DNA from: Telmatocola sphagniphila
Lineage (GTDB): Bacteria > Planctomycetota > Planctomycetia > Gemmatales > Gemmataceae
Direction: 5' to 3'
DNA: 32,000 nucleotides
Assembly: GCF_018398935.1 (NCBI RefSeq)
Contig: NZ_CP074694.1
Span: 5,280,001-5,312,000 of the forward strand
Position numbers and translations under genes: made by a program. This document shows, piece after piece, positions 10,657 through 31,764 of this stretch (positions are counted from its first letter, which is position 1; every line of letters begins with the position of its first letter). The notes under the pieces are model-generated. The model did not search any database and was not told the DNA's origin. It was given only the letters and a program-made list of their open reading frames with translations.

Positions 10657-13600
10657 ATGCCCGGCAAAAAAAGTGTAACTCGCAAGTTAACTAAATGGTT
10701 GTCTTCGTCCAATAGCAAGAAGCCATTGAAAGCGGAGTTGATCGGCACAAGCTTTTTAAAGCTAGAAGATAGAAATCAGCCTGGATCCGTTTTAAATTCA
10801 TTTGAGATGCTCCCTTCTTTTGCCTTTCCCAGTATCTTCGGAGATGCGACTGCAAACTTGAGTAGTTTTGGTGGTGAATCAAACGATCTACCCGGAGGCG
10901 GGCCCTCAGGGAGTGGAGGTTCAGGGTCCGAACCATTGCCTGGAAGCGGTTCAAATTCCGAAAGTGGAGCTGGCTCGACCGGTTCGGATAGTGGACCGGG
11001 TTCCTCGGGTTCTGGAAGTTCAACTGGCGGGAATGGGGGAAGTGGAAGCTCGGGCTTGCCGGGTTATGGTGGTGGGAGTTCAGGATCTAACCAGCAGTTC
11101 ACAGATGCCGTTTATGAGCAGACGGTCGCAAATGCATTGTCGCAATTCGGTCCTTTAGGTGACTTGTTTGGGGAAAATTCCCAAAAGATGAGTCCAGCGA
11201 ATTTATCGACCCCTCAAAATATCAGTCTGGAACCTCCTTTACCTCCTGCAGTAAATAACAACTGGTCCTATTCCGGACAATTTCAGCTTTCCGCGAATGA
11301 CAGTTCGACAGGCCCGACTTCGAGTCAGTTAAATTCGAATTTGAACCCGACACCCATAAATGTATCGCAGGAAATATCCGCGAATAACTTCAAATATTCC
11401 AGAGAGATTCAATTCAGCGGCAACCGAGAAAACGAATCCTTTCTGATGAGCGTTATCATCGATAGCACGGTGAGCCTGGGTCAAGTAACTACCGAAGCCG
11501 GTACTATCGTTTCGACCGTGTGGCATAAGGTAGGTAATCAATACCTCGTCAATCAACAGAGTGCCCTATCCAGTTTCAACACGATTGTGCCGAACGATCC
11601 GAACGGAAATAGAAGTTACGTCGGATTTCCCGCGCAAGGAGACATTACTCCGAACCTGGATCCTCGATCATACGGGCTGGATCAACTGCAGTGGGATCAC
11701 ATCTTCCGGGGTGATTCGGTCAGCTATACGTACAGTGGAATTTATCGTGGGAACTACGGGGATTTTAGCTACTATTCCAACTCGAGTGCAACCTCAAATT
11801 GGTTAGATTTGACGATTGATCATCCCACGGGGACGAATGATCAGGGATTGAAGTCAGTTGTTTACACAATGTATTTCGGGGGTAGTTCCTCGAAGGATTG
11901 TATCGTATCAAGTCAGTCGAGTTTATTAAGCCAATCAGCCAGTGCTAATAGAATTCCCATCCGAACGGGCAGTGCGGTAACTTTGCCCGAGCAGTATACA
12001 ACGAACGTCAGTGGTACGTCGTTCTTCGAAAGATCGTACTCGTGGCAGAATTATGGAGGTCATAGTTATTTAACGGATAGTCTCGACGCGGATAACGCCA
12101 TCAAGAATTCTACATTAGATTTTCGCAATCAATTTTCTGGAGGATCTGGATATCAGTATTACAATTCGAGCATTTGCAGCATAATAACGAACTCGATCGA
12201 CATAACTAAAGTCTCCAGAACGGATTACAGTTGGTTGACCAATTACGCTTCGCGAAATAATTATGCGGGCTACGTCGACTACAAGCTGAATTACGATAGC
12301 CAAAACCGCCCGAGCGGTCAAGTTGTCCAAAAGATGGACAGCGTTGATATCTTGGATCGCGATATCTACAACTGTTCGGTAGATTATTTCTCTTACGATC
12401 CGTTACCGAATTCCGGTCACTACGAATACTATTCGGATAACATGAAGCCCATCGTATATACGAACGGTAATTATCAAACTACGACTTACGCTAAACCGGT
12501 GGAAACGGCCTCCGAGCTCGCAAGTTACGTCCTAAACTATGGGAGAATTCCAGATTCTGATGGACGATTGTTCGACACGAACACTTGGTATTCCACGGCG
12601 GATACGTCCTATCAGACGCGGACCTTCGACAGGCGACAAAACAAATTCAATCAGCCAGGAAGAACTGGCAAGCCCTACTTCGGAAGTAGTTTCGAGAGCA
12701 ATGTTACCCGAGATGATTTTTATGTCGAGGCCAAGGGAGTTGATGATTTATGGCTGAAAGACGGCGTATCCACTCGAGAAGGAAATTATCTATCGCAATC
12801 GATCAACACTTACTACGGGCAAGGCACTCCTGAGCAATTGCCGAACGATATCGACGGTTCGAGTGCGATGTACGATTGGCAACAGGGCGAAAGTCGTGGA
12901 GAGTTTCGCGAAAAATATCTCAATTCCAATGGCACTTCCAAACTCACTTCTCAGTACGCCAGTGATCTGCATCACTCCTCGGGAAATGGCTGGAACTGGG
13001 GCTACACTTACGGGCCAAAAGTTCCCAATGTCACTAATTACTACCAATATTCATCGATTAGCGATGAAATCCATACTCTGGACTTGAACTTCGCTGCGGA
13101 CGGCAAAAAATCAGGAGATTATCATGACGTAGTATCAGGTTCTTTGGATGAAAAATATAACGAAACCAAAATCGGTAATGAGCCGACCTATTACGAAAAG
13201 GTAGAAGCAAACAAGGTGCTCTCGCTCAACTATCCGGACGCAAACACGACCCTGAACGATTCGTCACTCAATGAGCAGTATCAATTCAGTTTAGATGACG
13301 ATGAAGGCCATTACACCGCAGATAAAAAAAATGGAAATTATCAATCTAAATACAAATCGAATTCGAGATGGGATCAAAGGATCGAACGATCCTCGTCCGT
13401 TTACGCAAACACCTTGACGAATAAGTATCAAGGAACCATTAATGGATCAAGCACCAGTGATGTTGATGAAACTGGAATTGTGTTGAACGGCATTCGCACC
13501 GGTGCGGGCGAATTGAACGCGACACTCAAAGGAACAGAAAGGTACAATCAAAACAAGATCGAAAGAAAAGTAACACCCGGAGAGAACTATTCCGGTGACG

Positions 13601-15372
13601 ACAAGCTGAGTTATTTCAAGGAGCAAAAAAACGGCGAAAAAGTAGAATATCAGTTGAAATCTGATGGAAGTTTTCAAATTCTCCTCGACACGGTAAATTT
13701 AGACGAGAGAACAAAATCCTCGCAAATTTTAGATCACAAAACAATTACTGTAAATCGCCCGCACAGTTCGGACCTTCCTGAAGGGCAAAAAATTGAAACT
13801 TACAAGAGTCAATACGATGTTGATTACCATTATACAAAAGAAGGAAAACCTGATATTGGCCGGTTTACGAAAGAGACGACTTTAGATTGGACTGAATCTT
13901 CATCTACAGTAATGTCAAATATTTATTACGCTTCCTACATTGCTACATTAAATTCCCAAAGGGAATCAAATAGTCGAGGAAAAAATTATAGCTTCTACTC
14001 AGGTTGGGGTGACGAAGAAAACCCCACGATACTCAGTATTAAAGAAAAGTCGTTCTCAGTAATATATGCCAAAGGTCAAAGCACTAATTTGACCTTTGGC
14101 TCTAATATTACATTCTACAAATTCAACCAGTTCAGTTCAGTAAATATCGATCGAGAGGGTGTTCCTGCCCATGGTACAGGATCGCAAGTAGAAACCTCTG
14201 CAGAGTTAATAACTCAAACTATTTACGGGACGACAACGACTACTAGTAATAAGCCTCTGTGCACCACAACCACCGACTTATCTTGGCCACAAACAACTTG
14301 GTTCGAGCGGAACACGAATGCAATAGTAAATACAGCTAAAATCGCATTCGGACTGATTGAAGTTATCGGTGGTGCCTTGACCACCTTCGGCACCTGTGGC
14401 GGCGGAGTAGTTCCTGGCGTTTTCATGATGGCGAATGGACTGGATTCCATCATGACGGGCGTAGCCGGACTCTTGGACGGTCAATCGTATGGATCAGCTA
14501 TAGGCTACGCCGCTTCGCAGGGACTTCAAAAAATCGGCGTTCCAGAGAACGTTGCGGATGTGGCTGGAGAACTACTTCCGATCGCCATGAGTATGGGCTC
14601 CTCCGCACTCGCGCGGGCTTGCTTCGCAGCGGATACCAAATTATGGACGCCAACTGGCTATCGCCCAATTCAATCGATCAAAGCCGGAGAGTACGTCTAT
14701 TCCCGGAATGATGCCGATCCAAATGGTCCGATCGAACCGAAACTCGTCGAGGAGACTTTCAGCCGACTTGCGGTGATCTTCCACCTCCATGTGGAAAATC
14801 AGGTAATTCGCACTACAGGAGAACACCCCTTCTACGCCGAAGGCAAGGGGTGGGTCGATGCCCAGGAACTCCTCATTGGGGATAGAGTTCTCGGCTCGAA
14901 AGGAGAATGGCTGACAATTCGAGACTTGCTTGACACGGGCGAGTTCGAAACCGTATATAATATGCGAATTGCGGATCATCACACCTACTTCGTGGGTGAT
15001 GAATCCTGGGGCTGGGAGGTTTGGAGTCATAATAAGTGTCAACTACACCATTTCGTAATGGTAGCTTTAGGTAGTAAAGTTGAACGTGGTTCGTCCATTC
15101 TTACTTTGATCGGGTCTAGAACACACATAGCGATTCATCGAGCTCTGTCTAAACATCTGGAAACATACTCCAAGTATAGCCCTAAATTTGGAAAAACATT
15201 TACGATGAATCCTAAAAAGGGACAATCAGGGGACTTTATTCGATCAGTATTTTCACCATCAGAAAGAATTCAGGCATTGAAAGACTTTTATTCTACATAT
15301 AGAGGTGGGAGATACCTAAAGGAATTTATGATAGAGTTAGATACTACTCTTAAACGAGGCCTGTTCATATGA
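10657..15372 (+). CDS. large polymorphic toxin: N-terminal LEDR-like motif, G/S linker, N/S/T/Y-rich body, pre-toxin TG-like segment, Hint domain, LHH-type nuclease C-terminus
   Basis: Single 1571-aa ORF with no N-terminal hydrophobic signal peptide. It carries 'LKLEDRNQP' near the N-terminus, a Gly/Ser-rich tract (about aa 75-150), a Hint domain 'CFAADTKLW...TTGEHPF...VYNMRIADHHTYFVGD...WSHN' and a tail 'KCQLHHFV...THIAIHRAL'. The Hint-plus-variable-tail pattern repeats 4 times downstream. Confidence 0.9.
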   Translation: MPGKKSVTRKLTKWLSSSNSKKPLKAELIGTSFLKLEDRNQPGSVLNSFEMLPSFAFPSIFGDATANLSSFGGESNDLPGGGPSGSGGSGSEPLPGSGSNSESGAGSTGSDSGPGSSGSGSSTGGNGGSGSSGLPGYGGGSSGSNQQFTDAVYEQTVANALSQFGPLGDLFGENSQKMSPANLSTPQNISLEPPLPPAVNNNWSYSGQFQLSANDSSTGPTSSQLNSNLNPTPINVSQEISANNFKYSREIQFSGNRENESFLMSVIIDSTVSLGQVTTEAGTIVSTVWHKVGNQYLVNQQSALSSFNTIVPNDPNGNRSYVGFPAQGDITPNLDPRSYGLDQLQWDHIFRGDSVSYTYSGIYRGNYGDFSYYSNSSATSNWLDLTIDHPTGTNDQGLKSVVYTMYFGGSSSKDCIVSSQSSLLSQSASANRIPIRTGSAVTLPEQYTTNVSGTSFFERSYSWQNYGGHSYLTDSLDADNAIKNSTLDFRNQFSGGSGYQYYNSSICSIITNSIDITKVSRTDYSWLTNYASRNNYAGYVDYKLNYDSQNRPSGQVVQKMDSVDILDRDIYNCSVDYFSYDPLPNSGHYEYYSDNMKPIVYTNGNYQTTTYAKPVETASELASYVLNYGRIPDSDGRLFDTNTWYSTADTSYQTRTFDRRQNKFNQPGRTGKPYFGSSFESNVTRDDFYVEAKGVDDLWLKDGVSTREGNYLSQSINTYYGQGTPEQLPNDIDGSSAMYDWQQGESRGEFREKYLNSNGTSKLTSQYASDLHHSSGNGWNWGYTYGPKVPNVTNYYQYSSISDEIHTLDLNFAADGKKSGDYHDVVSGSLDEKYNETKIGNEPTYYEKVEANKVLSLNYPDANTTLNDSSLNEQYQFSLDDDEGHYTADKKNGNYQSKYKSNSRWDQRIERSSSVYANTLTNKYQGTINGSSTSDVDETGIVLNGIRTGAGELNATLKGTERYNQNKIERKVTPGENYSGDDKLSYFKEQKNGEKVEYQLKSDGSFQILLDTVNLDERTKSSQILDHKTITVNRPHSSDLPEGQKIETYKSQYDVDYHYTKEGKPDIGRFTKETTLDWTESSSTVMSNIYYASYIATLNSQRESNSRGKNYSFYSGWGDEENPTILSIKEKSFSVIYAKGQSTNLTFGSNITFYKFNQFSSVNIDREGVPAHGTGSQVETSAELITQTIYGTTTTTSNKPLCTTTTDLSWPQTTWFERNTNAIVNTAKIAFGLIEVIGGALTTFGTCGGGVVPGVFMMANGLDSIMTGVAGLLDGQSYGSAIGYAASQGLQKIGVPENVADVAGELLPIAMSMGSSALARACFAADTKLWTPTGYRPIQSIKAGEYVYSRNDADPNGPIEPKLVEETFSRLAVIFHLHVENQVIRTTGEHPFYAEGKGWVDAQELLIGDRVLGSKGEWLTIRDLLDTGEFETVYNMRIADHHTYFVGDESWGWEVWSHNKCQLHHFVMVALGSKVERGSSILTLIGSRTHIAIHRALSKHLETYSKYSPKFGKTFTMNPKKGQSGDFIRSVFSPSERIQALKDFYSTYRGGRYLKEFMIELDTTLKRGLFI
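10880..11100 (+). repeat. low-complexity Gly/Ser-rich coding tract inside the toxin gene
   Basis: Translates to 'GGGPSGSGGSGSEPLPGSGSNSESGAGSTGSDSGPGSSGSGSSTGGNGGSGSSGLPGYGGGSSGS'. Confidence 0.8.
14317..14619 (+). other. glycine-rich hydrophobic pre-toxin segment (PT-TG-like)
   Basis: 'AKIAFGLIEVIGGALTTFGTCGGGVVPGVFMMANGLDSIMTGVAGLLDG...' has glycine-zipper-like helices and TG dipeptides, immediately N-terminal to the Hint Cys1. This resembles the pre-toxin TG domain described for polymorphic toxins (from memory). Confidence 0.45.
14620..15033 (+). other. Hint (intein-like / PT-HINT) autoprocessing domain of the main toxin; master copy of the repeated handle
   Basis: Starts with Cys (tgc 14620). 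It has the block B 'TTGEHPF' (T-x-x-H), 'VYNMRIADHHTYFV' and a terminal 'SHN' (aat 15031-15033). It is about 138 aa with no endonuclease insert. Confidence 0.85.
15034..15372 (+). other. C-terminal toxin domain of the main gene, LHH-type HNH/EndoVII-fold nuclease (predicted)
   Basis: 'KCQLHHFVMVALGS..RTHIAIHRALSKHLE'. An LHH motif plus downstream His residues. Homologous to the orphan tail at 26263-26583 ('SCDLHHYLPMFMGS..DHTKFHRDINAFLE'). Confidence 0.5.
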
Positions 15373-15950
15373 AATATTATACATTTTACACAATAAAGGA
15401 TGCTAGTGTAAATACATCCATGTTCTATGAAATCGACAGCGGGACAGGTGTGTATTCTCCCTCTTCTGCCATTAGGCATCTCACTTGCAAAGAATGTAAT
15501 AAGTATGAAGAACGGAAAGCTTTCGATTTGTTAGCTACACGATCTTTTCAAATAACTCCAAAACATGACCATTTCGTGACTTTCGATGGTTGGAGAGTGG
15601 TTTCAAATAAATTCAAGGAAATTGTGGATAGGGTGGCCCCTAAATTAGTTTCTTGGTATCCCATTGGTGAAAAAAAACTCAATTTGTTTTTCGGATCAAT
15701 TCAATACCTTGCCAAATGTAAAGACGAGACATTACTCACTCGGTCAAATCTATGTAGCCTATGTGGTCGCTACGAAAATATATTAGAAGGTGATGCTCCT
15801 ATGGATTTCACCGATCATCCCGAGATTATCGGGCTACCATTTGAGAATAGATTTTGCTCTTCTCCAAGATGGTTAGTTTCTGAACGAATAAAAGAGTATC
15901 TTGAAGCTACGAATATTTCAAATATCGAATTTCATCAATATATGATGTAA
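15369..15950 (+). CDS. putative cognate immunity protein (family A; CXXC...CXXCG, Imm11/double-CXXCG-like)
   Basis: Its ATG overlaps the toxin stop (ATGA). It has 'CKEC' and 'CSLCG' motifs and a C-terminal 'RWLVSERIKEYLEATNISNIEF'. Paralogs lie at 25549-26151 and 26580-27187. Confidence 0.75.
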   Translation: MKYYTFYTIKDASVNTSMFYEIDSGTGVYSPSSAIRHLTCKECNKYEERKAFDLLATRSFQITPKHDHFVTFDGWRVVSNKFKEIVDRVAPKLVSWYPIGEKKLNLFFGSIQYLAKCKDETLLTRSNLCSLCGRYENILEGDAPMDFTDHPEIIGLPFENRFCSSPRWLVSERIKEYLEATNISNIEFHQYMM

Positions 15951-16096
15951 ACAATTTATGATAGATATCATGGAATATGATTAAAACTGGGTTGTTACGA
16001 AGTTGAATTTCGCACCTTGAGATAAAATCGCCATTCGATTTTGAGCAATATTGACGAGGTAACCGCAATACACTGGTTAGGTTTCCCAAAGAATTA

Positions 16097-16164
16097 GAGG
16101 CCCTAACAAAACCTCAATATGTCCATTGAAAACCGCTACAAAAAAGGGGTTTTGTTAGAGCTTC
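16097..16164. mobile_element. 68-bp MITE copy A (IS1031-like termini, TTA duplication)
   Basis: 'gaggccctaacaaaacc...ggggttttgttagagcttc' flanked by TTA (16094-96 and 16165-67). Same element as 20780-20846 and 30963-31029. Confidence 0.7.
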
Positions 16165-16180
16165 TTAGTCAGGATTTCAC

Positions 16181-16594
16181 ATGGATTTGGATTTTTTGAA
16201 ATTTCACGGTTCTGCGATGAAGATCGCAGAAGCTGAATTATCAGCTTCTTTTTTTGAGGATGAAAAGCAAGTCCTTGGAAAAAAAATGTATGAAGAATAT
16301 GTAGCATCCGGTGCTCCAAAAGATTTGAAAAAATGGCTACGAATCAAATTAAAAAGCGTATTCCAGTATGTGGATTCACCTCCAAAGTGGGTCGAAAATG
16401 GTTTAGACCCACTTTGGCCTTTCTTAGATGGCTTTCCTATGATCTTCATTAAACAATTTGAGCTACCAGACAACGAATTTTGTGCTCAGAGTCTATCTGC
16501 TGGTACGATTTTGTACGTTTTTGGTGCTCGTCGAAAAACATCACATGGTTTCGAGATGATTTACCGAGTAGTGGAGCAAGATACAGGTTTTTAA
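16181..16594 (+). CDS. hypothetical protein, candidate orphan immunity protein (family B)
   Basis: 137-aa ORF and paralog of 30533-30946. The C-terminal half is almost identical at nucleotide level and the N-terminal half is diverged. Confidence 0.65.
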   Translation: MDLDFLKFHGSAMKIAEAELSASFFEDEKQVLGKKMYEEYVASGAPKDLKKWLRIKLKSVFQYVDSPPKWVENGLDPLWPFLDGFPMIFIKQFELPDNEFCAQSLSAGTILYVFGARRKTSHGFEMIYRVVEQDTGF

Positions 16595-16709
16595 AGATGA
16601 ATTGGTTTTACGTATAAGACATACATTTCTCCTTAGTCTGCGGTATTTACGTCTGTTTTCATGTACTCAGCATACTATAGTATAGCTCGATCATTGGATG
16701 AATTCGAAA

Positions 16710-17313
16710 ATGCCATTTCACGTCCTAGTCGAGCGAATTGAAAACGATGCTGGACCGAATTTTTCCCGGTTGAGCCAAAATATGGTCCAGGTCCGAAGTG
16801 CCCGAAATGCGGACAATTTGTCGGCTCACTACCTTTGGTACCCCCTACCGCTTCAAGTTGGATGTTTGGGGTAATCAATACGGCGATCTCGCGTTCGGAG
16901 GTCCCAGCCTTCTGATTTCTGAACACTTTAAAGAAGTCTATCAACAAAACGGATTGACCGGCCTGAACGGCTTCGAGCCCGCTCTAATGTTGAAATGCCA
17001 AAGTCGATTGAGGCTCAAAGAAACACCTCCAAATTATCTCCATGTAGAGCTCCATCGAGGGTTCGCTGCGATTGATGAAGCGGGTTCAGAAGTTATTTGG
17101 GAAGATCCTATTGTCTGTCGATATTGTCTACTAGGATCCAAACTGAAACGTCGTCGACGCATCATTATTGATGAATCGACTTGGAGCGGTGAGGATATTT
17201 TTTATGCCCGTGGCCTCCCAGGTATAATCCTCGTTTCCAGCCGTTTCAAAGAAGTGTGCGAACAGCATCAGATCAAAAATGCGATTTTCGTTCCCTCGGA
17301 ACACCGGCGGTAG
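16710..17313 (+). pseudogene. double-CXXCG-type immunity protein gene (family C) broken by two -1 frameshifts
   Basis: Frame 0 gives 'MPFHVLVERIENDAGPNF'. Frame 2 gives 'FPVEPKYGPGPKCPKCGQFVGSLPLVPP'. Frame 1 (track ORF 16798-17313) gives 'YRFKLDVWGNQYGDLAFGGPSLLISEHF...VCRYC...GEDIFYARGLPGIILVSSRFKEVCEQHQIKNAIFVP'. The frame switches fall at a T5 run (16760-64) and a C5 run (16841-45). Confidence 0.7.
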
Positions 17314-17339
17314 CATAGCATTTTGGTTCCTCCGTTCTA

Positions 17340-17762
17340 GCACGAGCCTGCTTCGCAGCGGACACCAAATTATGGACGCCAACCGGCTATCGTCCGATTC
17401 AATCGATCAAGGCCGGGGAGTACGTCTATTCCCGGAATGATGCCGATCCTAATGGTCCCATCGAGCCGAAACTCGTCGAGGAGACTTTTAGCCGGCTCGC
17501 GGTGATCTTCCATCTCCAAGTAGAAAATCAAGTAATTCGCACTACGGGAGAACACCCCTTCTTCGCAGAAGGCAAGGGGTGGGTCGATGCCCAAGAACTC
17601 CTCATTGGAGATAGAGTTCTCGGCTCGAACGGTGAATGGCTGACTATTCGAGACTTGCTTGACACGGGCGAGTTCGAAACCGTATACAATATGCGAATTG
17701 CGGATCATCATACCTACTTCGTGGGCGATGATCGCTGGGGCTGGGAGGTCTGGAGCCATAAT
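17340..17762 (+). repeat. Hint handle copy 2 (full length)
   Basis: Nucleotide-level alignment by eye with 14611-15033. The differences are mostly synonymous. Confidence 0.9.
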
Positions 17763-18047
17763 AAGTGTATTGGTGAATACGCAGATCTTCGAAAAATCTG
17801 GGCTGGGGCCGGCAAACAGATTCATCATTTGTTAGAGCAACGCTTTGCAAAACTGCTCGGCATGGATCCTATGAAAATGTAATGTATCGCAATGCCAAAA
17901 GCAAAACATCAAGTATTCACCAACGCATGGAGAAGGCTTATTCCCTACGGCGAGGGGACCAAATCTGCGACTGTAGCGGAAGTTGAAAATGCTGCTCGAC
18001 AAGTGTACAAAAATTATCCTGGAATATTAAGAGCTCTTGGACTTTAA
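17340..18047 (+). pseudogene. orphan toxin cassette O1: complete Hint domain + xHH (AHH-like) HNH/EndoVII nuclease tail, no start codon, internal TAA
   Basis: The frame is open from 17319 with no ATG. 'ARACFAADTKLWTPTGYRPIQ...WSHN' matches the main gene from 9 nt before Cys1. The tail is 'KCIGEY..QIHHLLEQRFAKLLGMDPMKM*CIAMPKAKHQVFTNAWRRLIPYG...', with an in-frame TAA at 17880-82 and a final stop at 18045-47. Confidence 0.75.
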
Positions 18048-18061: not shown

Positions 18062-18889
18062 ATGAAGATAATCCACAGAATCTCTCTTAGCGCAACTAAA
18101 TCTCAGAGAACAGCGTTGGATGAATTGGGTGTTAAATATCAGGATGTTATTTCCGATTCAATAGTATTTGAAACTGACGAATCGTCAGCAAATTGGAGTT
18201 CAATCAGCTCTCTGCTCGCACTATGGAAATCAGGGAATTCAAATGTTATAGATATGGTAAGTACAAAATTTACTGAGATGGAATTGCTGAAGGCGGAAAA
18301 TTTAGTAATCGTCCCTGGCTGGCATCATGGTTATCCTGAACCGGACATTGCCATGGCCTATCTGAAGAAGACATACGATGAAATTGAGTATTGTTCAATT
18401 TGTGGAATAGGACTAAAGCAGCGAGAGCAATTTATTTTGCAGAAAGAACCAAAGTGGGGGTCAAAACAAATTCTCCAATTGAATTGGATATTCGATGAGT
18501 ATTTTGTAACTCCAGAAGTATGGGAGTTAGTGTTTAAACCTTTTAGAATCTCTTCAATCCCAGTTAGCAAGTTAAAAACAGGTAATCCTCTGGCAACTGT
18601 CGTGCAACTTAAAGTTTCCGATGTTTGTGAGCCTCTAACACCGTTTAACAGATTGAATTCCGTTCGATGCGACAAATGTGGTCGTTCGAAATATGCGAGT
18701 CACACAAAGGGACCGTTTCCACATGTTGTAATGCCCAAAAATTCGCATATTGCTAAAACTGCGGAATACTTTGGTAATGGTGCAAATGCATATAAAGAAA
18801 TAATTGTGTCTAGATCGTTATATCACGCAATTGTTTTAAATCGTTTGAAAGGAGCTGATTTTAAACCTGTAGAATCCTCTTTAAGATGA
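18062..18889 (+). CDS. double-CXXCG motif protein, putative immunity protein for O1
   Basis: 275 aa with 'CSICG' and 'CDKCG' motifs and a C-terminal 'EIIVSRSLYHAIVLNRLKGADFKPV'. It starts 14 nt after the O1 stop. Confidence 0.7.
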   Translation: MKIIHRISLSATKSQRTALDELGVKYQDVISDSIVFETDESSANWSSISSLLALWKSGNSNVIDMVSTKFTEMELLKAENLVIVPGWHHGYPEPDIAMAYLKKTYDEIEYCSICGIGLKQREQFILQKEPKWGSKQILQLNWIFDEYFVTPEVWELVFKPFRISSIPVSKLKTGNPLATVVQLKVSDVCEPLTPFNRLNSVRCDKCGRSKYASHTKGPFPHVVMPKNSHIAKTAEYFGNGANAYKEIIVSRSLYHAIVLNRLKGADFKPVESSLR

Positions 18890-24639: not shown

Positions 24640-25176
24640 ATGAATATAGATTCTGAATCCGTCACAGCTATGCCATCGATTCAAGATTGCTTTTCTGATG
24701 GAAGTGCTGTGGATATTTGGGCTTTTATACGCTGTGAAAAATATACTGGAAAAACGCCGATACCTTTTAAATCTGAAGATTCAAGGATCATCGATGATTT
24801 TAACTATACGGCATTTGGCGCCATAATTGTATCTGAGCGTATGGCTGTCTGCTTGCGAGATATATCGCCGAACGATTTTGAATTAATTCCATGTCTCATC
24901 AACAATAATTACACTTCGCTTATTGTTAACGTTCTAGCGAATCCTGATTGCATCGATACTGCTGCAAGTATAATTCAATATTATCCTCCCGACGATCCGG
25001 AAAAACCCAACAAACCGAGAGGCGTTATAAAATTGGTGATTGATTCAGCCCAGGCAAGTCCGCATCACATTTTACGTCCAAAATATTGGCAAGTCGAAAT
25101 TGTGATTTCTCAAATTTTTAAAGATGCTTTTGAGCAGGGGAAATTCACTGGCATGCGGTTTAGCCCGGCCTATTGA
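24640..25176 (+). CDS. Imm11/DUF1629-like putative immunity protein for O3, 5' end displaced by the ISL3 insertion
   Basis: The original start 'ATGAAATATTACGAG ATGAATAT' is at 23194-23216. After the IS the reading frame resumes at the duplicated ATGAATAT (24640): 'MNIDSESVTAMPSIQ...'. The C-terminus is 'YWQVEIVISQIFKDAFEQGKFTGMRFSPAY'. The track ORF 24565-25176 starts inside the IS. Confidence 0.7.
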   Translation: MNIDSESVTAMPSIQDCFSDGSAVDIWAFIRCEKYTGKTPIPFKSEDSRIIDDFNYTAFGAIIVSERMAVCLRDISPNDFELIPCLINNNYTSLIVNVLANPDCIDTAASIIQYYPPDDPEKPNKPRGVIKLVIDSAQASPHHILRPKYWQVEIVISQIFKDAFEQGKFTGMRFSPAY

Positions 25177-25204
25177 TTACTATTTCCCATTTTAGGAGAT
25201 TAAG

Positions 25205-25381: not shown

Positions 25382-25548
25382 TTGCCGCTGGCCCTGGGGT
25401 CGTGCCTCGGGAATCCAGGGCTCCAAAAAGAGCCCACTGACCATCCGTTAAATCTGTTGAATAGGGTTTCCGCTCTATGTGTAATTATATTCACGTACAC
25501 GCTTTTGGATTAGAATCCGAGTTCTATGTTGAGAAGAGGTTTATTCAA

Positions 25549-26151
25549 GTGAACTTTTTCGCTATATTTACTAAAAAGGATGTTACACCATCGACTTCGC
25601 TGTTTTATAAATTAGATAAAATAACAGACAAATATTCGCCTATTTTAGAAATTAATCATTTGACATGCTCATTATGTATTAAATACGATGAAAATAAGGC
25701 TATCGAGTTGCTAAGTGCTAGAAAGTTGAGCGTATTGCCAAAAATGGATCATTTTGTTACTTTCGATGGATGGAGACTATTTTCGGAGAAATTTAGAAAT
25801 ATTGTAGAGTCTGTGGCACCGCGACTCGTAACTTGGTATCCTATAAGCACAAAAAGATCTGCTATATATTATGGGTCAATCCACTTTCTCGCAAAATGTT
25901 CTGAAGGGAATACATTGGAGTGTTCTAATAAATGCGATCTGTGTGGTCGATACGAGAGTGTTCTTGAGGGAAATGTACCGTTGAAATTAGAAAATATCCC
26001 AGATATTGTTGGTTTGCCATTTGAAGACAGATTTTGCTCTTCTCCCAGATGGTTAGTTTCCGATCGAATAAAAGCGAAGCTTGAGGCAGCAGGTATTACA
26101 AATATAGATTTCCATCGCTATTATAGAGACTCGAGGGTATATAGTATGTAA
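25549..26151 (+). CDS. family A immunity protein paralog (CXXC...CXXCG), cognate toxin lost
   Basis: Aligns along its length with 15369-15950 ('HLTCSLC..', 'HFVTFDGWRLFSEKFRNIVESVAPRLVTWYPI', 'CDLCGRYE', 'FCSSPRWLVSDRIKAKLEAAGITNIDFH'). The GTG at 25549 aligns with the paralog start. The track ORF extends to the ATG at 25477. Confidence 0.75.
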   Translation: MNFFAIFTKKDVTPSTSLFYKLDKITDKYSPILEINHLTCSLCIKYDENKAIELLSARKLSVLPKMDHFVTFDGWRLFSEKFRNIVESVAPRLVTWYPISTKRSAIYYGSIHFLAKCSEGNTLECSNKCDLCGRYESVLEGNVPLKLENIPDIVGLPFEDRFCSSPRWLVSDRIKAKLEAAGITNIDFHRYYRDSRVYSM

Positions 26152-26200: not shown

Positions 26201-26262
26201 CGGATCATCACACCTACTTCGTGGGTGATGAATCCTGGGGCTGGGAGGTTTGGAGTCATAAC
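26201..26262 (+). repeat. Hint handle copy 5 (~60 nt)
   Basis: Perfect match by eye to 14971-15030 of the main toxin gene. Confidence 0.85.
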
Positions 26263-26583
26263 AGTTGTGACTTACATCATTATCTACCGATGTTTATGGG
26301 AAGTATGGTACGGCGCGGCACTTTGTTCGCTCGCTCAATCCTAAAACCATTCATAAAGACAGATCATACCAAATTTCATAGGGACATAAATGCATTCTTA
26401 GAAACACTAGATATGACAGTTAAAAGAGGCAGAACGTCACAAGACATTATCACTACGTTTGCGAAAAGGAGCGACTCAAAGCATTTGTTGTGGTTATATA
26501 TATATTATGAACAGGAAATTGATGCTAAGGTATTTCTTAATAAACTTTGTGCGACTATTAGAGCGGGATACTTTCCTAGATGA
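26221..26583 (+). CDS. orphan toxin cassette O4: last ~20 aa of Hint + LHH-type nuclease tail (predicted)
   Basis: 26201-26259 is identical by eye to the main gene ('DHHTYFVGDESWGWEVWSHN'). The tail then reads 'SCDLHHYLPMFMGSMVRRG...DHTKFHRDINAFLE'. There is no ATG; the track ORF uses the GTG at 26221. Confidence 0.7.
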   Translation: MGDESWGWEVWSHNSCDLHHYLPMFMGSMVRRGTLFARSILKPFIKTDHTKFHRDINAFLETLDMTVKRGRTSQDIITTFAKRSDSKHLLWLYIYYEQEIDAKVFLNKLCATIRAGYFPR

Positions 26584-27187
26584 TCACAAATATGTTTCTT
26601 GTTACTCCTCGAGATACAGTTAATTCGTTCTTTCTGTTTAGATTTATTAATAATAAATCTGGGGCGATGCTACAAATTCGTGAGGAATATACCGATTTAG
26701 TTTGCCATAAATGCGGTAAATTGAATGAAATTTCAGCTTTAGATAGAAATATTGTTTTCATGTCAAAAATTAAGAGCAAAAAATCATTCGTTTTATCTGC
26801 AGATGATTTTTATCTGACTAATCAAAACGGAGTTTTGTCTTTGAATAAATCTTTTGGGAATCTTCTTGTTTTTCGGGAACAGATTACTTTGCAGTGACAC
26901 CGAAATGCATAGTCCAGCCGAAATTGCACGATGAAGGATTTAAATTTGTGTATGGAACTCAGGGAAACTGCACAGAATGCAGACGGCCGAAAGAAGTGGT
27001 ATGGTCCAAAACTCCGCCAACTATTTCAAAAATGCCGGTCTTATTCGCAGTAAACTTAGAGAGCCAGCTGGGCGCAAGAGTTGTATGGATAGTACAAAAT
27101 GAGGTTCAGGATGAACTTAGATCATTGAAGTCAATACACCCTGGTATAGTTTACAGACCAATTAAATTTGATTGTAACTTAGTTTAG
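26580..27187 (+). pseudogene. family A-like immunity gene for O4, split into two ORFs by a frame change at ~26894
   Basis: Its ATG overlaps the O4 stop (ATGA). ORF1 (26580-26897) carries 'CHKCG'. ORF2 (26894-27187, GTG overlapping the TGA) carries 'CTEC' and ends 'ARVVWIVQNEVQDELRSLKSIHPGIVYRPI'. Together they mirror the single-ORF paralogs. Confidence 0.6.
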
Positions 27188-27225
27188 GTAATGCTTCCTG
27201 GACTGCATCACAACTAGCTGTGCTA

Positions 27226-27530
27226 GTGTAGTGTCTCACACAGAATGTGTTTTATCAAGGGTGGCTCTAGCCCGGCGAACTTTCTCCAGAATAGTCTCGG
27301 CTTCCTCGGCAATGTCCTTGTTCAATACACCTGCGGCCGCCGCGAGTATGATCTTCGCCCGAAGGACCAGCCGAGCGGGAGTACATCGTCCCCGAGACCA
27401 AGAAGTCAACGTTTGTCGTTCCTCGTCAGAAAGTAAGATTAGCAGCGCGACTTTCATGGGTTTACTCCTTAATCTATAGAGTAAACCGCAAAAAAGAGCA
27501 AAAGGAAACGCTATTTCTGATACAGTACAC
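27226..27530 (-). mobile_element. 305-bp internal-deletion derivative of the IS630 element (MITE-like), TA-flanked
   Basis: Ends 'gtgtagtgtctca' (27226-) and 'tgatacagtacac' (-27530), with TA on both sides. It encodes a 73-aa in-frame fusion of the transposase N-terminus (52 aa, HTH) to its last ~20 aa (ORF 27236-27457, minus strand). Confidence 0.85.
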
Positions 27531-27686
27531 TAGGGACCCTTTAACTGGATATATTCCTGCGTCTGGGGCGCCCATGGTCCTTTTCTTGCGCGACCTTTTG
27601 GCGACTTTACTTGACAAGATATTAAAGATTTTGCCAACTTAATCGACAGATTGTTTGGCAAGTAGTTTCTTCCTCCCAGGTAAAAT

Positions 27687-28133
27687 ATGAGTATTTATAG
27701 TATTCTCGAACCTGAAGTAGCCGGAGTGATCGGTGAGTCTAGCTTCATCGATGGTAGTACGATTCCGCAGGTCGTACGCAGTCTAGAATATAAATTTGAG
27801 ACCTGGTTCGAGAATGATCTATTGCAAGCATACCCTTGCTTCCTTGTAACCGACAGGCTGAAAAAGGCACTCGAAAAATATCATGGAACGGGGTACAGTT
27901 TTGACGAAGTCTTTGCAACTCAATCCGTTCAATTTGAACTGATCAATCCCGGTATAACATTGGGGTTATTCTGGTGCTTTAAAATCTCCGGCCATGCAGG
28001 GGAAGCGGATTTTGGCTTGTCAGAAGATGGTACTTTAGTTGTGTCAGCCAATGCTCTTGAGATTCTTCGGAAATTTAATCTTAGCCGTTGCACAATTAGA
28101 ACGAGGCCGTTTCAACCAAAAAAAGCAATCTGA
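27687..28133 (+). CDS. hypothetical protein, candidate orphan immunity protein
   Basis: 148-aa ORF containing 'CFLVTDRLKKALEKYHGTGYSFDEV', the same LV(S/T)..hK..hE....G..F motif as the other immunity candidates. No adjacent toxin. Confidence 0.5.
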   Translation: MSIYSILEPEVAGVIGESSFIDGSTIPQVVRSLEYKFETWFENDLLQAYPCFLVTDRLKKALEKYHGTGYSFDEVFATQSVQFELINPGITLGLFWCFKISGHAGEADFGLSEDGTLVVSANALEILRKFNLSRCTIRTRPFQPKKAI

Positions 28134-28235
28134 TTCTCAGGAAATCGTTTACCACAAATTAAAAAAATATTCGGTAACCCTTCAGTCCCCTGAACTGCAG
28201 ACGCGCAGTTAGCAGGATTTTGCCATGACGGTGTC

Positions 28236-29030
28236 ATGGTTGTTAACTCATCGACTGATACGAGCGAAATCGAACCTTCCTTCGTTCAGAATTTTCGTAG
28301 TGATACTCTGACGGAAGCTCAGGCTCAAGCGTTTGCCGAACAGGATCCTTTGTTTATTAAATTTCAACTTTCGAAATTGCCCTCGATCAATCTTTCCAAG
28401 CGTTCGCTGCATGCTTCCTCAAGCACCTTGGCTCCCTTCGAGAAGCCTTCTCCCAAGAAGCGTCCTCGCTCGCCCGGTGCCAAAGCGGGTCACGAGGGGC
28501 ATTCGCGGGAGAAGCCCGAGCGGATCGATCACCGTTTGCCCTGCTGCCCCGATTGCGGCAGAGAACAGACTCGCACCGACCGTCAGCGTACGCGAGTTAT
28601 CGAAGATATTCCGGCGAACTTAAAGGCGGAAGCGGTCGATCACACCCTTCATCGGGACTGGTGTTCTTCCTGCAAAAAGCAGGTGGAACCCAAAGTTCCC
28701 GACGCTCTGCCGGCCTGCACGCTGGGCAACCAGCCGGCCACGCTCTCGGCTTTCTTGCACTACAGCGTGGGCACGACCACTCGCCAAGAGGTCGATGTCT
28801 TCAATGGCCATCTGCAATTGAAGATCACCGAAGGCGGTTTGACCCAGAAGTGGCATCGGTTGGCCGAGACTCTGAAGCCCTGGTACGAGCAGATCTGGGA
28901 CGAGTGCCAGCAAGCGGCGGTGCTCAATGCCGATGAGACCGGTTGGCATCCGAATGGAGCCTTGATCTGGTTGTGGTGATTCTGTACGGCCCGCTCGAGG
29001 TTCTATGCCATCGACCCCTGCCAAAGCCGA
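28236..29030 (+). pseudogene. IS66-family transposase N-terminal fragment (truncated, in-frame TGA)
   Basis: zf-IS66-like 'CCPDCG...C..C', then 'LNADETGWHPNGALIWLW*FCTARSRFYAIDP'. The DDE core is absent and the sequence runs into an IS630 end fragment. Confidence 0.7.
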
Positions 29031-29100
29031 GGCTATTCTGGAGAAAGTTCGTCGGGCTAAGGCTACCTTGGATAAAAGATCTTCTGTGTGTGACCTGCAC
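29018..29100 (+). mobile_element. IS630 right-end fragment
   Basis: 'ccaaagccgaggctattctggagaaagttcgtcgggctaaggctaccttggataaaag..ctgtgtgtgacctgcac' parallels 20473-20554 of the intact copy, followed by TA. Confidence 0.7.
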
Positions 29101-29502
29101 TAGATAAGCAGATCGTTGATAAGAAATCCCTCCTTTAGCTAATTAGGGTAGGGTAAACTCATCTCTTTTATTTTGATAAAGGGTTCTTTTCTGCGGTGTT
29201 TGCTTAAAAAATAGCTTTGTTCGTCTCAAGAAGTGTAAAACATAGGCTTTCGCCGATGAAATAGCACGGTAGCTATTATAATAAAGCATGATCGGTTACT
29301 AGGAGATCCCTACAGAACCACCGTTTTAGGCGGTTTTCCATGGACAATCGAGAGTTTTGTTCGGATTTTTAAACATACTGTCAATATGCAGATTCAAGAG
29401 CAGTTGGAAACCGCCAAGAAAGCTCTTAAAGACTAAACATCGATCTGGCAAAATGTACAGAAACATCGGAATACAAATAAATTTCTCCAGCGATCAATCG
29501 TT

Positions 29503-29964
29503 ATGGACGATAGCTTAAATCTAAGAATTCGAAATCTCGAACACGTAAAAAACGAATGCATAATAACGAATGCGCAAATCGACGAAGTGGAGGATGAACT
29601 CTCTTTTGCTTTTCCATCAGATTATCGGTCGTTCATTCTGACTTTCGGCGTACTATTTCTGGACGGACACATTATTCGAGGAATCTATGAGGAGGACGAG
29701 CAGGAACTAGAATCATTTGGCGTAAGCATTCTTGAAACGAAGCGCGAACGCAAAAAAATCGGCAAGTTTACCGGCTATCCGGCCGATTTCATAGTCTTGG
29801 AAGCTAATTCTGGTGGCGGATACGTGCTTCTGATTTTCAGGGAAGGCAAATATACTCTTGAGAATTGGGAGAAGGACGGCGATTGGTATCTTCTGAAAGA
29901 ATGGAATAGTTTCACTGACTATTTAAACGAGATCGTCGAAAATGCTGAGAAAAGCGTTCTGTGA
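29503..29964 (+). CDS. SMI1/KNR4 (SUKH-1) family protein, orphan immunity candidate
   Basis: 153 aa. 'ITNAQIDEVEDELSFAFPSDYRSFILTFG' is the typical SMI1/KNR4 N-terminal signature (xxIxxxExxLGxxLPxDYxxFL). Confidence 0.7.
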   Translation: MDDSLNLRIRNLEHVKNECIITNAQIDEVEDELSFAFPSDYRSFILTFGVLFLDGHIIRGIYEEDEQELESFGVSILETKRERKKIGKFTGYPADFIVLEANSGGGYVLLIFREGKYTLENWEKDGDWYLLKEWNSFTDYLNEIVENAEKSVL

Positions 29965-30458
29965 AACCATCGCCTACTAAATCCAGATATTTTTCACGGC
30001 CAAAACTCGGCGATGTGTTTGAAGTTGCTCTTTCCAAAGGGGACTTCGGATATATTCAGTATGTTTACAATTATCGTAAGCCGCCCGTATGTGGTCCGTT
30101 GATTCGCATCCTGCCTGGACTCTACGCTTCCAGACCTGAGAATATAAGTGATTTGGTTGCGCAATCGGAACGTTTCTGGACTTTCTATCCGCTAGCTACC
30201 CTTTTGCATCAGGGATTAGTTACGAAAGTTTCAAACGAAGCAATTCCTGAACGATGTCAGACGTTCCCCTTGTTCAAGGCATGTAATCGGAACTTTCAAA
30301 CGGGACAGAAGACTTGGTTTCTCTGGGATGGAGATAAAGAATGGAAAGAAGACCCACTTTCACCAGAGTATTATGATCTATCGCTTTGCCAGATTATAGG
30401 TCATGAACTACTCGTCGAACGTATTGAAACCACCTGGTCGCCTCGCGATGAAGTATAA
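29961..30458 (+). CDS. hypothetical protein, Imm26-like immunity candidate
   Basis: 165 aa. Its GTG overlaps the upstream stop (GTGA). The N-terminal 'KLGDVFEVALSKGDFGYIQYVY' resembles the GDxFxxPLxDGxxGYGxV start of Imm26-type proteins (from memory). Confidence 0.5.
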   Translation: MKPSPTKSRYFSRPKLGDVFEVALSKGDFGYIQYVYNYRKPPVCGPLIRILPGLYASRPENISDLVAQSERFWTFYPLATLLHQGLVTKVSNEAIPERCQTFPLFKACNRNFQTGQKTWFLWDGDKEWKEDPLSPEYYDLSLCQIIGHELLVERIETTWSPRDEV

Positions 30459-30532: not shown

Positions 30533-30946
30533 ATGGACATGCAATATTTGAAATTTCATGGCATTGCTATGAAAGAAGCAGAAAATGAATTTTCTGCTTC
30601 TTTCTTTGAAGACGAAAAAGATGCGCTAGCGAAAAAACTGTTCGAAGAATATTTGAGTGAAGGCGCTCCGAAAGACACTAATAAATGGCTGCGATCCAAA
30701 CTCAAAAGCGTTTTTCAGTATGTGGATTCACCTCCAAAGTGGGTCGAAAATGGTTTAGACCCGATTTGGCCTTTCCTAGATGGCTTTCCTATGATCTTCA
30801 TCAAACAATTTGAGCTACCAGACAACGAATTTTGTGCTCAGAGTCTATCTGCTGGTACGATTTTGTACGTTTTTGGTGCTCGTCGAAAAACATCACATGG
30901 TTTCGAGATGATTTACCGAGTAGTGGAGCAAGATATAGCTTTTTAA
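30533..30946 (+). CDS. hypothetical protein, family B paralog (candidate immunity)
   Basis: 137 aa. The C-terminal ~75 aa are identical or nearly so to 16181-16594. Confidence 0.65.
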   Translation: MDMQYLKFHGIAMKEAENEFSASFFEDEKDALAKKLFEEYLSEGAPKDTNKWLRSKLKSVFQYVDSPPKWVENGLDPIWPFLDGFPMIFIKQFELPDNEFCAQSLSAGTILYVFGARRKTSHGFEMIYRVVEQDIAF

Positions 30947-30962
30947 AGATGAATTTGTCTTA

Positions 30963-31029
30963 GAGCCTCTAACAAAACCTCAGTTTGTTCATGGAATACT
31001 GCTACAAAAAGGGGTTTTGTTAGAGCCTC
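30963..31029. mobile_element. 67-bp MITE copy C (filled site; empty site at 16608-16610)
   Basis: 'gagcctctaacaaaacc...ggggttttgttagagcctc' flanked by TTA (30960-62 and 31030-32). The paralogous sequence at 16595-16620 reads '..gaattggttTTAcgtataagac' with no insert. Confidence 0.8.
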
Positions 31030-31131
31030 TTACGTATAAGACATACATTTCTCCTTAGTCTGCGGTATTTACGTCTGTTTTCATGTACTCAGCATACTAT
31101 AGTATAGCTCGATCATTGGATGAATTCGAAA

Positions 31132-31735
31132 ATGCCATTTCACGTCCTAGTCGAGCGAATTGAAAACGATGCTGGACCGAATTTTTCCCGGTTGAGCCAA
31201 AATATGGTCCAGGTCCGAAGTGCCCGAAATGCGGACAATTTGTCGGCTCACTACCTTTGGTACCCCCTACCGCTTCAAGTTGGATGTTTGGGGTAATCAA
31301 TACGGCGATCTCGCGTTCGGAGGTCCCAGTCTTTTGATTTCTGAATTCTTCAAAGAAGTCTATCACCAAAACAGATTGACCGGCCTGAATGGATTCGAGC
31401 CCGCTCTAATGTTGAAATGCCAAAGTCGATTGAGGCTCAAAGAAACACCTCCAAATTATCTCCATGTAGAGCTCCATCGAGGGTTCACTTCAATCGACGA
31501 GGCGGGTTCAGAAGTTGTTTGGGAAGATCCCATTGTCTGTAGCTATTGTCTACTAGGGTACAAACTCAAGCGACGTCGACGCATCATTATTGATGAATCG
31601 ACTTGGAACGGTGAGGACATTTTTTATGCCCGTGGCCTCCCAGGTATAATCCTCGTTTCCAGCCGTTTCAAAGAAGTGTGCGAACAGCATCAGATCAAAA
31701 ATGCGATTTTCGTACCTTCCCAACACCGGCGTTAA
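31132..31735 (+). pseudogene. second copy of the family C double-CXXCG-type gene with the same two frameshifts
   Basis: Same three-frame structure as 16710-17313, with the T5 run at 31182-86 and the C5 run at 31263-67. 'CPKCG' lies in the middle frame. The track ORF is 31220-31735. Confidence 0.7.
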
Positions 31736-31764
31736 ATTGTTTGGCGTCACACTCAATTCCCTAC

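Follow-up and report, generated by a model that had tools for sequence, protein, structure and literature searches.

The 32,000-nucleotide window analysed here, taken from the genome of the planctomycete Telmatocola sphagniphila, contains a polymorphic toxin island, made up of one full-length toxin gene, four 5'-truncated toxin cassettes and a number of immunity-type genes downstream. The full-length gene encodes a protein of 1571 amino acids (aa), in which a Hint domain precedes a short C-terminal tail; the 3' part of the Hint-coding sequence, here called the handle, recurs four times downstream, each time joined to another tail. Very probably, to judge from the sequence, the Hint domain releases the tail, and the orphan cassettes are former or imported 3' ends, which could be re-attached to the gene by recombination within Hint. 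A preliminary description, based on the letters of the window, had already guessed at a planctomycete-like host: database search identified it as T. sphagniphila, of the Gemmataceae group, the record being a single contig of 6,592,641 bp.

Repeats were found by self-BLASTN and by a repeat finder within the window. The four handle copies are the following:

17325-17768, + strand: handle copy of orphan 1, corresponding to main gene 14596-15039 (91.2% identity, E=6e-180)
21104-21435, + strand: handle copy of orphan 2, corresponding to main gene 14710-15041 (88.6% identity)
22657-22793, + strand: handle copy of orphan 3, corresponding to main gene 14897-15033 (91.2% identity)
26201-26281, + strand: handle copy of orphan 4, corresponding to main gene 14972-15052 (91.4% identity)

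Their starts lie within about 15 nt of the four positions, 17340, 21097, 22659 and 26201, at which the preliminary description had placed the repeats. A possible extension of the orphan 2 copy back to 20990, at 66% identity, was rejected, as its translation contains stops, real homology beginning at about 21104. With a 26-nt probe made to the final Hint codons and up to 3 mismatches, exactly five sites are found in the window, all on the + strand, while 100 shuffles gave none. Translated in register, all five copies finish with ...VWSHN, followed by KCQLHH in the main gene and by KCIGEY, KCHTYA, SICSVL and SCDLHH in orphans 1 to 4, respectively. The proposal that homology breaks right after SHN, with a different tail each time, is fully borne out by these translations, copy 4, which carries a distant paralogue of the main tail, being the exception to the rule of unrelated tails. 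Within the window, one Hint end is joined to five tails, as expected of a polymorphic toxin system. The farther a copy lies from the main gene, the less of the Hint-coding 3' end it keeps, from 438 to 324, 137 and 62 nt (146, 113, 46 and 20 codons in orphans 1 to 4): the downstream modules keep the 3' end of the conserved region and are devoid of its 5' part, as is typical of an orphan array. Orphan 1 has no ATG, GTG or TTG start codon before 17502, orphan 2 has an ATG where homology starts, and in orphans 3 and 4 the candidates are limited to TTG or GTG codons inside or after the stub.

The main gene and its parts are listed below, together with the immunity gene that overlaps its end; evidence is in brackets (ORF, open reading frame).

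10657-15372, + strand: full-length polymorphic toxin gene, 1571 aa, KIH39_21200, annotated as hypothetical protein (ORF list, database search)
14149-14619, + strand: pre-Hint segment, aa 1165-1321 (homology reach, hydropathy)
[quoted passage not shown]
15034-15372, + strand: putative main toxin tail, 112 aa, starting with KCQLHH (position, paralogy to the orphan 4 tail)
15369-15950, + strand: cognate immunity gene, 193 aa, Imm11, two CxxC motifs (Imm11 E=2e-7, 30.9 bits, cut-off 22.1)

The Hint domain runs from a Cys1 codon (14620-14622), exactly where its start had been placed earlier, to the terminal His-Asn codons (15028-15033). In the main protein, aa 1331-1459 match the PT-HINT profile (PF07591) with E=2e-21 (77.1 bits, cut-off 27.7), and the cut-off is also exceeded in orphan 1 (64 bits, E=2e-17) and orphan 2 (67 bits, E=2.5e-18); the 46-codon stub of orphan 3 falls under it, and a custom Hint hidden Markov model recovers all five copies. 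The nearest solved structure, 2LWY (E=9e-21), was deposited as 'bacterial intein-like domain'. The catalytic landmarks, Cys1322, a block B TTGEH (TxxH) and the terminal SHN1459, are all present in the main Hint, and the TxxH, HTYFV and HN columns are invariant or near-invariant in the Hint alignment. Directly after the Asn (+1), the main gene and orphans 1 and 2 have Lys, whereas orphans 3 and 4 have Ser. Because the +1 residue of the main gene is Lys, cleavage, and not splicing, is expected; type-A BILs, which end in His-Asn and have no +1 nucleophile, yield chiefly cleavage products (PMC4031507). By analogy, the Hint domain would cut the peptide bond after its terminal Asn through Asn cyclisation, freeing the tail during or after export.

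Similar loci are found in other genomes. One genome per species was scanned with the Hint alignment, and 77 of the loci found were kept which, together with two metagenome contigs, form a set of 79 related loci, indicated below by L numbers. More than 542 confirmed Hint relatives were obtained in the genome scan, and among the 77 kept loci Planctomycetota predominate, with Gemmataceae, Gemmatales and Pirellulales represented. About 50 metagenome proteins, mostly short (80-255 aa), were also retrieved with the Hint query, and consist of a whole or 5'-truncated PT-HINT followed by differing toxin families. At least two Hint copies are present in 27 of the 79 loci, on the same strand in all but one. 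Long genes followed by orphans occur in Gemmata algarum (L026, 1634 aa and three orphans), in a Pirellulales metagenome-assembled genome (MAG; L037, 1953 aa and four orphans), in Pirellula (L073) and in Zavarzinella formosa (L024); extra copies lie downstream of 8 of the 18 long Hint genes for which at least 3 kb of downstream sequence is available. Within loci, identity amounts to 0.84 for the final 25 residues of Hint and to 0.08 for the 25 residues with which the tails begin. All 111 related domains end in xHN, and the residue at +1 is Ala in 53, Thr in 16, Ser in 12 and Cys in one (Ser, Thr or Cys in 29 of 111). A complete Hint, with 9-109 residues (mostly 19-37) of open frame ahead, is found in 30 of 46 orphan-like ORFs elsewhere; the deep truncation of orphans 3 and 4 is therefore the less common state. 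The same tail families are carried by long genes in one genome and by short cassettes in another, as in L016 and L074 (84%), which speaks indirectly for an exchange of tails between cassettes and full-length genes within this clade.

Two of the related loci are of a somewhat different make. In L005, from an uncultured Planctomycetaceae MAG (CAVXNL010000018.1, 450305-470733), eight same-strand Hint matches fall within 20 kb, several of them with 250-815 residues of ORF upstream, so that this array seems to be composed of partial bodies, each with Hint and tail, and not of minimal cassettes. L016 is similar, featuring four copies, each of which keeps 500-1000 aa upstream.

The main protein is ordered as an N-terminal motif, a Gly/Ser linker, a body of about 1000 aa, the pre-Hint segment, Hint and tail: the tail is thus C-terminal-most, and regions of presentation type precede PT-HINT within the 1571-aa ORF, according to the template known for polymorphic toxins. 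The ORF itself, the PT-HINT match and the ATGA at 15369 all agree with the preliminary description of a 1571-aa gene ending in Hint, a tail and an overlapping immunity gene. The N-terminal part (10657-10800) carries FLKLEDRNQPGS, of the form LE[DE]RxxP, which is also found in the long planctomycete Hint toxins of L026, L053, L041, L055 and L015. In long toxins of this kind the motif lies some 30-70 residues from the start, and no classical hydrophobic signal peptide accompanies it. It may represent a phylum-specific export signal, and resembles the 'planctomycete extracellular' N-terminal motif, a lead only, with no Pfam match.

The body (about aa 160-1164; nucleotides 11104-14148 span aa 150-1164) abounds in Ser, Asn, Thr and Tyr. 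A search of 1.84 billion representative proteins with aa 150-1320 returned no homologue of the body, matches being confined to the pre-Hint segment, and the sole weak body match was to a 1473-aa protein (E=1e-4). Scanning of JGI metagenome contigs with the body gave 97 pattern matches, none of which was confirmed, and the full-length toxin returned only itself, in a search where low-complexity Gly/Ser words crowded the candidate list. What is conserved elsewhere upstream of Hint are only 110-150 Gly-rich, moderately hydrophobic residues, homology reaching back to about aa 1165-1220. Such hydrophobic stretches as the protein has (aa 1229-1247, 1255-1273 and 1306-1324) are all found in this pre-Hint segment, which is rich in Gly, Thr and Ala. 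Hydrophobic segments are combined with HINT in some firmicute toxins, according to Zhang et al.; in the present protein the segment may have a part in membrane anchoring or in translocation. PT-HINT is the only Pfam family found in the 1571-aa protein, with no match to RHS/YD repeats, TPS, FHA or DUF1020, and no CdiB, MafA or PAAR/VgrG accompanies it in the locus; by its domain content, the protein is outside the Rhs, CdiA and MafB families.

The four cassettes are, in order:

17319-18047, + strand: orphan cassette 1, with a complete Hint including Cys1 (17325-17762, 91%) (repeats, PT-HINT E=2e-17)
21086-21724, + strand: orphan cassette 2, with handle 21104-21427 (PT-HINT, Tox-URI2)
22657-23153, + strand: orphan cassette 3, with a 46-codon Hint stub (22657-22793, 91%) and an AHH tail (self-BLASTN, AHH)
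26201-26583, + strand: orphan cassette 4, with a 20-codon Hint stub and a paralogue of the main tail, SCDLHH... (BLAST, translation)

Tails are intact as ORFs in three of the four orphans. In orphan 1, the tail (17763-18047) is broken by an in-frame TAA at 17880-17882 and is otherwise open to 18047; read through the stop, it matches no family. The Hint of orphan 2 is missing about its first 33 residues, including Cys1, an ATG being found exactly at the point where homology starts, and its tail belongs to Tox-URI2, a GIY-YIG/URI-fold nuclease family (E=2e-7, 31.7 bits, cut-off 20). The tail of orphan 3 belongs to the AHH (HNH/EndoVII) nuclease family (E=1e-6, 28.9 bits, cut-off 22.3). Both assignments, AHH and GIY-YIG, had been anticipated, and both exceed the Pfam cut-offs. 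NCBI annotation has protein-coding genes at orphans 1-3.

The main tail is a putative toxin by virtue of its position and of its paralogue in cassette 4, to which it is 28% identical (E=2e-10), the two sharing a C-x-LHH start. No match to it, LHH included, was found in Pfam and NCBIfam even at permissive E-values; a word-based search returned no homologue, and a profile search of PDB produced a chance match only (E=1). An AlphaFold model, built on an alignment of two sequences, reached a pLDDT of 59.7, too low for a fold search. The term 'nuclease-like', initially applied to this tail, has accordingly been dropped, neither LHH nor any other nuclease family being matched and the model being unusable. 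No tail of the window was found among the ORFs of the 79 related loci, comparison with which returned two matches only, both of immunity type.

Further immunity-type genes identified in the island are the following:

16181-17313, + strand: orphan immunity pair, a 137-aa ORF (16181-16594) and a double-CXXCG/Imm11 ORF (16798-17313) (Imm11 E=2e-5)
18062-18889, + strand: 275-aa gene in the immunity position of cassette 1, with two CxxCG motifs, guanine-cytosine (GC) fraction 0.38 (position, motif)
21761-22405, + strand: immunity-position gene of cassette 2, 214 aa, GC 0.38 (position)
24640-25176, + strand: Imm11 gene, probably paired with the AHH tail in cassette 3 (Imm11 E=2.5e-16)
25477-26151, + strand: stand-alone immunity gene, whose product shares 54% identity with that of the main immunity gene (BLASTP E=1.5e-82)
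26580-27187, + strand: immunity-position gene of cassette 4, two CxxC motifs (position, ATGA overlap)
29503-29964, + strand: stand-alone SUKH/SMI1_KNR4 gene (SUKH E=8e-13)
29961-30458, + strand: stand-alone 165-aa ORF of immunity type (relatives directly after Hint toxins)
30533-31735, + strand: second copy of the immunity pair, at the right end of the island (repeats, self-BLASTN)

Pairing of toxin and immunity gene is regular. Imm11 follows the main tail, ORFs begin 0-36 nt after orphans 1, 2 and 4, and in both the main and the orphan 4 pairs the toxin stop and the immunity start overlap in ATGA. The small AT-rich ORF that the preliminary description saw after each repeat is thus present for orphans 1, 2 and 4, where the last one is frameshifted, but not for orphan 3, whose Imm11 gene is displaced by an intervening ISL3 element; the association of AHH with Imm11 has been listed (PMC3482391). 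The ORFs at 18062-18889 and 21761-22405 gave no family match in profile searches. That of cassette 4, whose similarity to the main immunity protein is weak (E=0.005), is broken near 26894, where a frameshift divides it into 26580-26897 and 26894-27187. Among the stand-alone genes, the 165-aa ORF has relatives directly 3' of Hint toxins in L036 and L058 (E=1e-56 and 2e-31).

PT-HINT, Imm11 and SMI1_KNR4/SUKH, all expected from the preliminary description, were recovered by profile searches. The double-CXXCG family was expected as well, and a match is present at 16798-17313, but it is weak: TIGR02264 (SitI6) gives E=1.6e-4 and 21 bits, below the curated cut-off of 100. In both copies of the pair the double-CXXCG member is N-terminally frameshifted, its CPKCG motif lying in another frame, and an intact 233-aa relative directly follows a Hint toxin in L040. 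The two copies of the pair are 86-96% identical, and a 300-nt block (16608-16907 and 31030-31329) is identical at 100%, which suggests recent gene conversion. As a direct repeat, the pair flanks the entire 13-kb orphan array, and could be a substrate for its deletion or duplication.

The handles differ from the main gene at 9-11% of nucleotides, mostly at synonymous sites: orphan 1, for example, shows 39 nt differences but only 6 aa differences over 146 codons. Synonymous divergence (dS) is 0.42-0.50, and the ratio of non-synonymous to synonymous divergence (dN/dS) 0.05-0.12, with no indels or stops. The copies therefore cannot be recent local duplications drifting neutrally, and most of their divergence arose at a time when each copy belonged to a Hint that was translated and functional. 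This may have happened in other lineages before transfer, in earlier 3' ends of the main gene, or by continued translation in place, settings which the data do not separate. The runs perfectly identical to the main gene measure 41, 49, 23 and 61 nt in orphans 1 to 4, the stub of orphan 4 being the same at 61 of 62 nt. By their length they should suffice for homologous recombination, at a frequency lowered by the overall divergence. GC is 0.48-0.53, near-genomic, in the handles and 0.33-0.43 in tails and immunity genes, which fits horizontally moving cassettes grafted through a conserved Hint.

In the reading that we favour, the gene at 10657-15372 would encode a large surface or secreted protein, formed by body, Hint and a 112-aa toxin tail. 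The cassettes, former or imported 3' ends whose Hint copies would each have diverged inside a functional gene, could re-attach to the body by homologous recombination. Because DNA homology ends exactly at what is the predicted protein cleavage site, a crossover anywhere in Hint would yield an in-frame chimera, whose new tail would still be releasable and would have its own immunity gene behind. The immunity genes retained in the array would also shield the cell from relatives carrying those toxins. As to the displaced-orphan architecture of Rhs, CDI or MafB type, suggested at the outset, the layout of orphan cassettes is indeed there, but the data do not distinguish displaced cassettes from imported or reservoir ones.

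Several observations weigh against this reading. All that is said here about toxicity, neutralisation, cleavage by Hint, export or recombination is inference. A divergence as large as that of the handles would cut the efficiency of homologous recombination, and recombination between direct repeats would remove the main immunity gene. The stop in orphan 1, two frameshifted immunity genes and the many insertion sequences (IS) indicate that part of the array is decaying, and is not a working reservoir. For the main tail there is no recognised family, nor any detectable homologue save orphan 4, and hydropathy reveals neither a Sec-type signal peptide nor a hydrophobic N-terminus in the main protein. 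Finally, no close relative of either the strain or the toxin body was found in the collections searched, so that a tail swap at this locus could not be observed.

Part of these data could be accommodated by assuming the same anatomy without a switching reservoir: serial C-terminal displacement would have left behind disused orphan toxins, the immunity genes alone being maintained, against toxins of neighbours. This is a real possibility, although not the one we would choose. It accounts for the decrease of handle length with distance, for the stop in the tail of orphan 1, for the IS630, ISL3 and IS66 insertions and remnants in the array and for the toxin-less immunity genes (25477, 29503, 29961 and the duplicated pair), and agrees with Zhang et al., for whom immunity genes strung together at the 3' side are what earlier replacements left behind. 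Yet only one orphan tail of the four is interrupted, the handles are free of stops and indels at a dS of about 0.4-0.5, two immunity genes are frameshifted too, and the farthest copy, orphan 4, is the most similar to the main gene, contrary to a simple age gradient. It is rather unlikely, on the other hand, that some cassettes are independent small genes, with a start codon of their own and coding for proteins made of a truncated Hint and a toxin, as suggested for Neisseria mafB-CT cassettes with an initiation codon (PMC4287609). The ATG of orphan 2, the NCBI calls at orphans 1-3, the strong purifying selection on Hint stubs and the dozens of short Hint-plus-toxin ORFs in metagenomes would be explained in this way; but such products would be without export and body regions, no canonical start precedes 17502 in orphan 1, and the stub lengths are arbitrary. 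Gene callers, moreover, take the first start in any open frame, so that annotation is not evidence of expression, and divergence before silencing explains the signature of selection equally well.

Switching might also take place at the protein level, translated Hint C-fragments of the orphans acting in trans with an N-fragment of the body, like a split intein, so that alternative toxins are attached or released with no DNA rearrangement. Orphan 3, with 46 Hint residues, and orphan 2, missing only the N-terminal third of Hint, would be the candidates, and the low dN/dS, the stubs without indels or stops and the ATG of orphan 2 are compatible with the idea; set against the arbitrary stub lengths, the intact main Hint and the many orphans with complete Hint elsewhere, we deem it very improbable. 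Still less credit can be given to the Hint copies being true mobile inteins, that is, selfish elements capable of protein splicing. They do feature Cys1, TxxH and HN blocks and weak matches to Intein_splicing (E=5e-4) and intein_Nterm (E=1e-3), and two of the tails have folds, HNH and GIY-YIG, that occur also in homing endonucleases. Inteins, however, have a +1 nucleophile, are inserted in conserved host proteins and often enclose a homing endonuclease. The hypothesis was rejected, since Lys is at +1 in the main gene (and Ser, Thr or Cys at a minority of related junctions), the 138-aa Hint contains no nested endonuclease, and the supposed downstream extein, toxin-like and paired with an immunity gene, differs every time; the best family and structure matches are, besides, to PT-HINT and BIL. 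As for the repeats being assembly duplications or a misassembly, a worry voiced in the preliminary description, the chance is close to nil: nothing but the repetitive nature of the locus speaks for it, while copies that are 9-11% apart, mostly at synonymous sites, are therefore not assembly duplicates, each is followed by another tail, the record is a single 6.59-Mb contig, and the architecture recurs in independent genomes.

The favoured reading, that of a Hint-releasing toxin with re-attachable 3' ends, has published precedents. HINT is known as a releasing peptidase located just before the toxin, standalone toxin-immunity cassettes have been described, and planctomycetes are among the carriers (PMC3482391, PMC3113570); the template of Zhang, Aravind and coworkers also includes strings of immunity genes, read as remnants of earlier replacements, and diversification by recombination (PMC3113570, PMC3482391). 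The Telmatocola locus shares with their PT-HINT toxins the HINT before a C-terminal toxin, the 3' cassettes and immunity strings and the coupling of AHH with Imm11; not contained in those papers, and reported here, are a planctomycete locus, the coincidence of the homology breakpoint with the His-Asn site and the frequency of arrays in the phylum. Even closer is the similarity to the class-1 maf islands of Neisseria, where Jamet et al. found mafB-CT cassettes beginning with an A-type BIL minus 7 residues, downstream of a mafB that may carry a complete BIL (PMC4287609), the shared BIL/Hint region being proposed as the segment for mafB rearrangement (PMC4287609, PMC4524018). In both cases a full-length secreted toxin has a type-A BIL/Hint before a variable toxin, and downstream cassettes consist of Hint, an alternative toxin and an immunity gene. 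In contrast to MafB, the Telmatocola locus, from another phylum, has neither a DUF1020/MafB N-terminal domain nor mafA (no Pfam match), its body is unrelated and far larger (about 1300 aa), handles are cut down to 20 codons, and immunity genes are of the Imm11/double-CXXCG and SUKH types.

Rhs and CdiA orphan modules likewise keep a piece of the conserved region, have no initiation signals and lie downstream with immunity genes; in Salmonella, an orphan Rhs toxin is reported to be activated by recombination with the main gene (PMC3967940, PMC3150448). Here, unlike in those systems, the handle is an autoproteolytic domain, and not a PxxxxDPxGL or VENN motif, and RHS/YD, PAAR/VgrG, TPS, FHA and CdiB are missing. 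With the BIL of Clostridium thermocellum (2LWY) the Telmatocola Hint shares the block B TxxH and the HTY[FH]VG block, but its context is a toxin locus with repeated handles, and cleavage is predicted from sequence. The two CxxC(G) motifs of immunity-position ORFs, and one weak SitI6 (TIGR02264) match, recall the SitA/SitI proteins of Myxococcus; no SitA-type lipoprotein toxin and no TraA/B context were seen in Telmatocola, and the likeness is limited to the immunity fold.

The claim that such a Hint-handled orphan array was undescribed fails, because the BIL-headed mafB-CT cassettes of Neisseria and the PT-HINT definition had been published; the same architecture, moreover, is present in other planctomycetes. 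The design principle is thus already known, and this is no new kind of system. What is new is the organism, the exact anatomy, complete with pseudogenes and IS, the signature of selection on the handles, a body without homologues and the finding that arrays are common in planctomycete genomes; a search of the available literature found no description of such loci in Planctomycetota. In the Hint clade surveyed, the breakpoint of DNA homology coincides with the predicted site of protein cleavage, and Hint-handled arrays are common in the phylum. We know of no experimentally characterised interbacterial toxin system in planctomycetes, and the export of their giant surface proteins is, to our knowledge, poorly understood. 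T. sphagniphila is in culture and its genome is complete; with a clear full-length gene, one toxin-immunity pair that is intact and four spare cassettes, its locus offers a usable entry point to Hint-mediated toxin release, to recombinational tail switching and to the function of unassigned tail and immunity families.

The island extends over about 10000-31735, where GC falls to 0.33-0.48, Hint copies and IS excepted. GC is about 0.55 left of 9917, and 0.55-0.59 in the flanks overall. No tRNA was found in a scan of the window, which therefore has no tRNA-linked island boundary. A scan for promoters and terminators gave counts not above those of shuffled sequence, and was uninformative on orphan expression. 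Within 323-6103, on the - strand, two ABC-2 permeases, a double ABC ATPase, an HlyD-type adaptor and a TetR regulator resemble an ordinary efflux operon, and no evidence ties this block to the toxin. The flanking genes and the mobile elements are as follows:

Left of 9917, strand opposite to the toxin: ABC-2 transporter, HlyD-type protein, TetR regulator and HSP90-like ATPase genes
19384-20557, + strand: intact IS630-family element with perfect 16-bp terminal inverted repeats (DDE_3 E=2e-19)
23215-24641, + strand: ISL3-family element with 20-bp inverted repeats (profile search, inverted repeats)
27223-29103: debris zone (profile searches, self-BLASTN, inverted repeats), including the next four
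27223-27533, - strand: internally deleted IS630 copy of 311 bp, both ends kept, similar to a miniature inverted-repeat transposable element (MITE)
27687-28133: 148-aa ORF
28236-28979: IS66 transposase fragment
29020-29103: solo IS630 right end, beside the IS66 fragment

The ISL3 transposase is encoded in two overlapping frames (23270-24067 and 23991-24626). The element sits between the AHH tail and the Imm11 gene of cassette 3, exactly at the Imm11 start codon: it is flanked by ...GAGATGAAT on the left and by GAATATAG... on the right, and the IS end (..CCAT), together with the following G, remakes the ATG of the immunity ORF.

Finally, a palindromic intergenic element of about 75 nt is present in three copies in the island (16094-16167, 20776-20850 and 30960-31032). 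It is predicted to fold into a long hairpin with a core stem of 13-15 bp (CCUAACAAAACC.../...GGUUUUGUUAGG) and a minimum free energy of -26 to -31 kcal/mol (z -3 to -5 versus shuffles), and may be a repeat similar to MITEs or to repetitive extragenic palindromic (REP) sequences.

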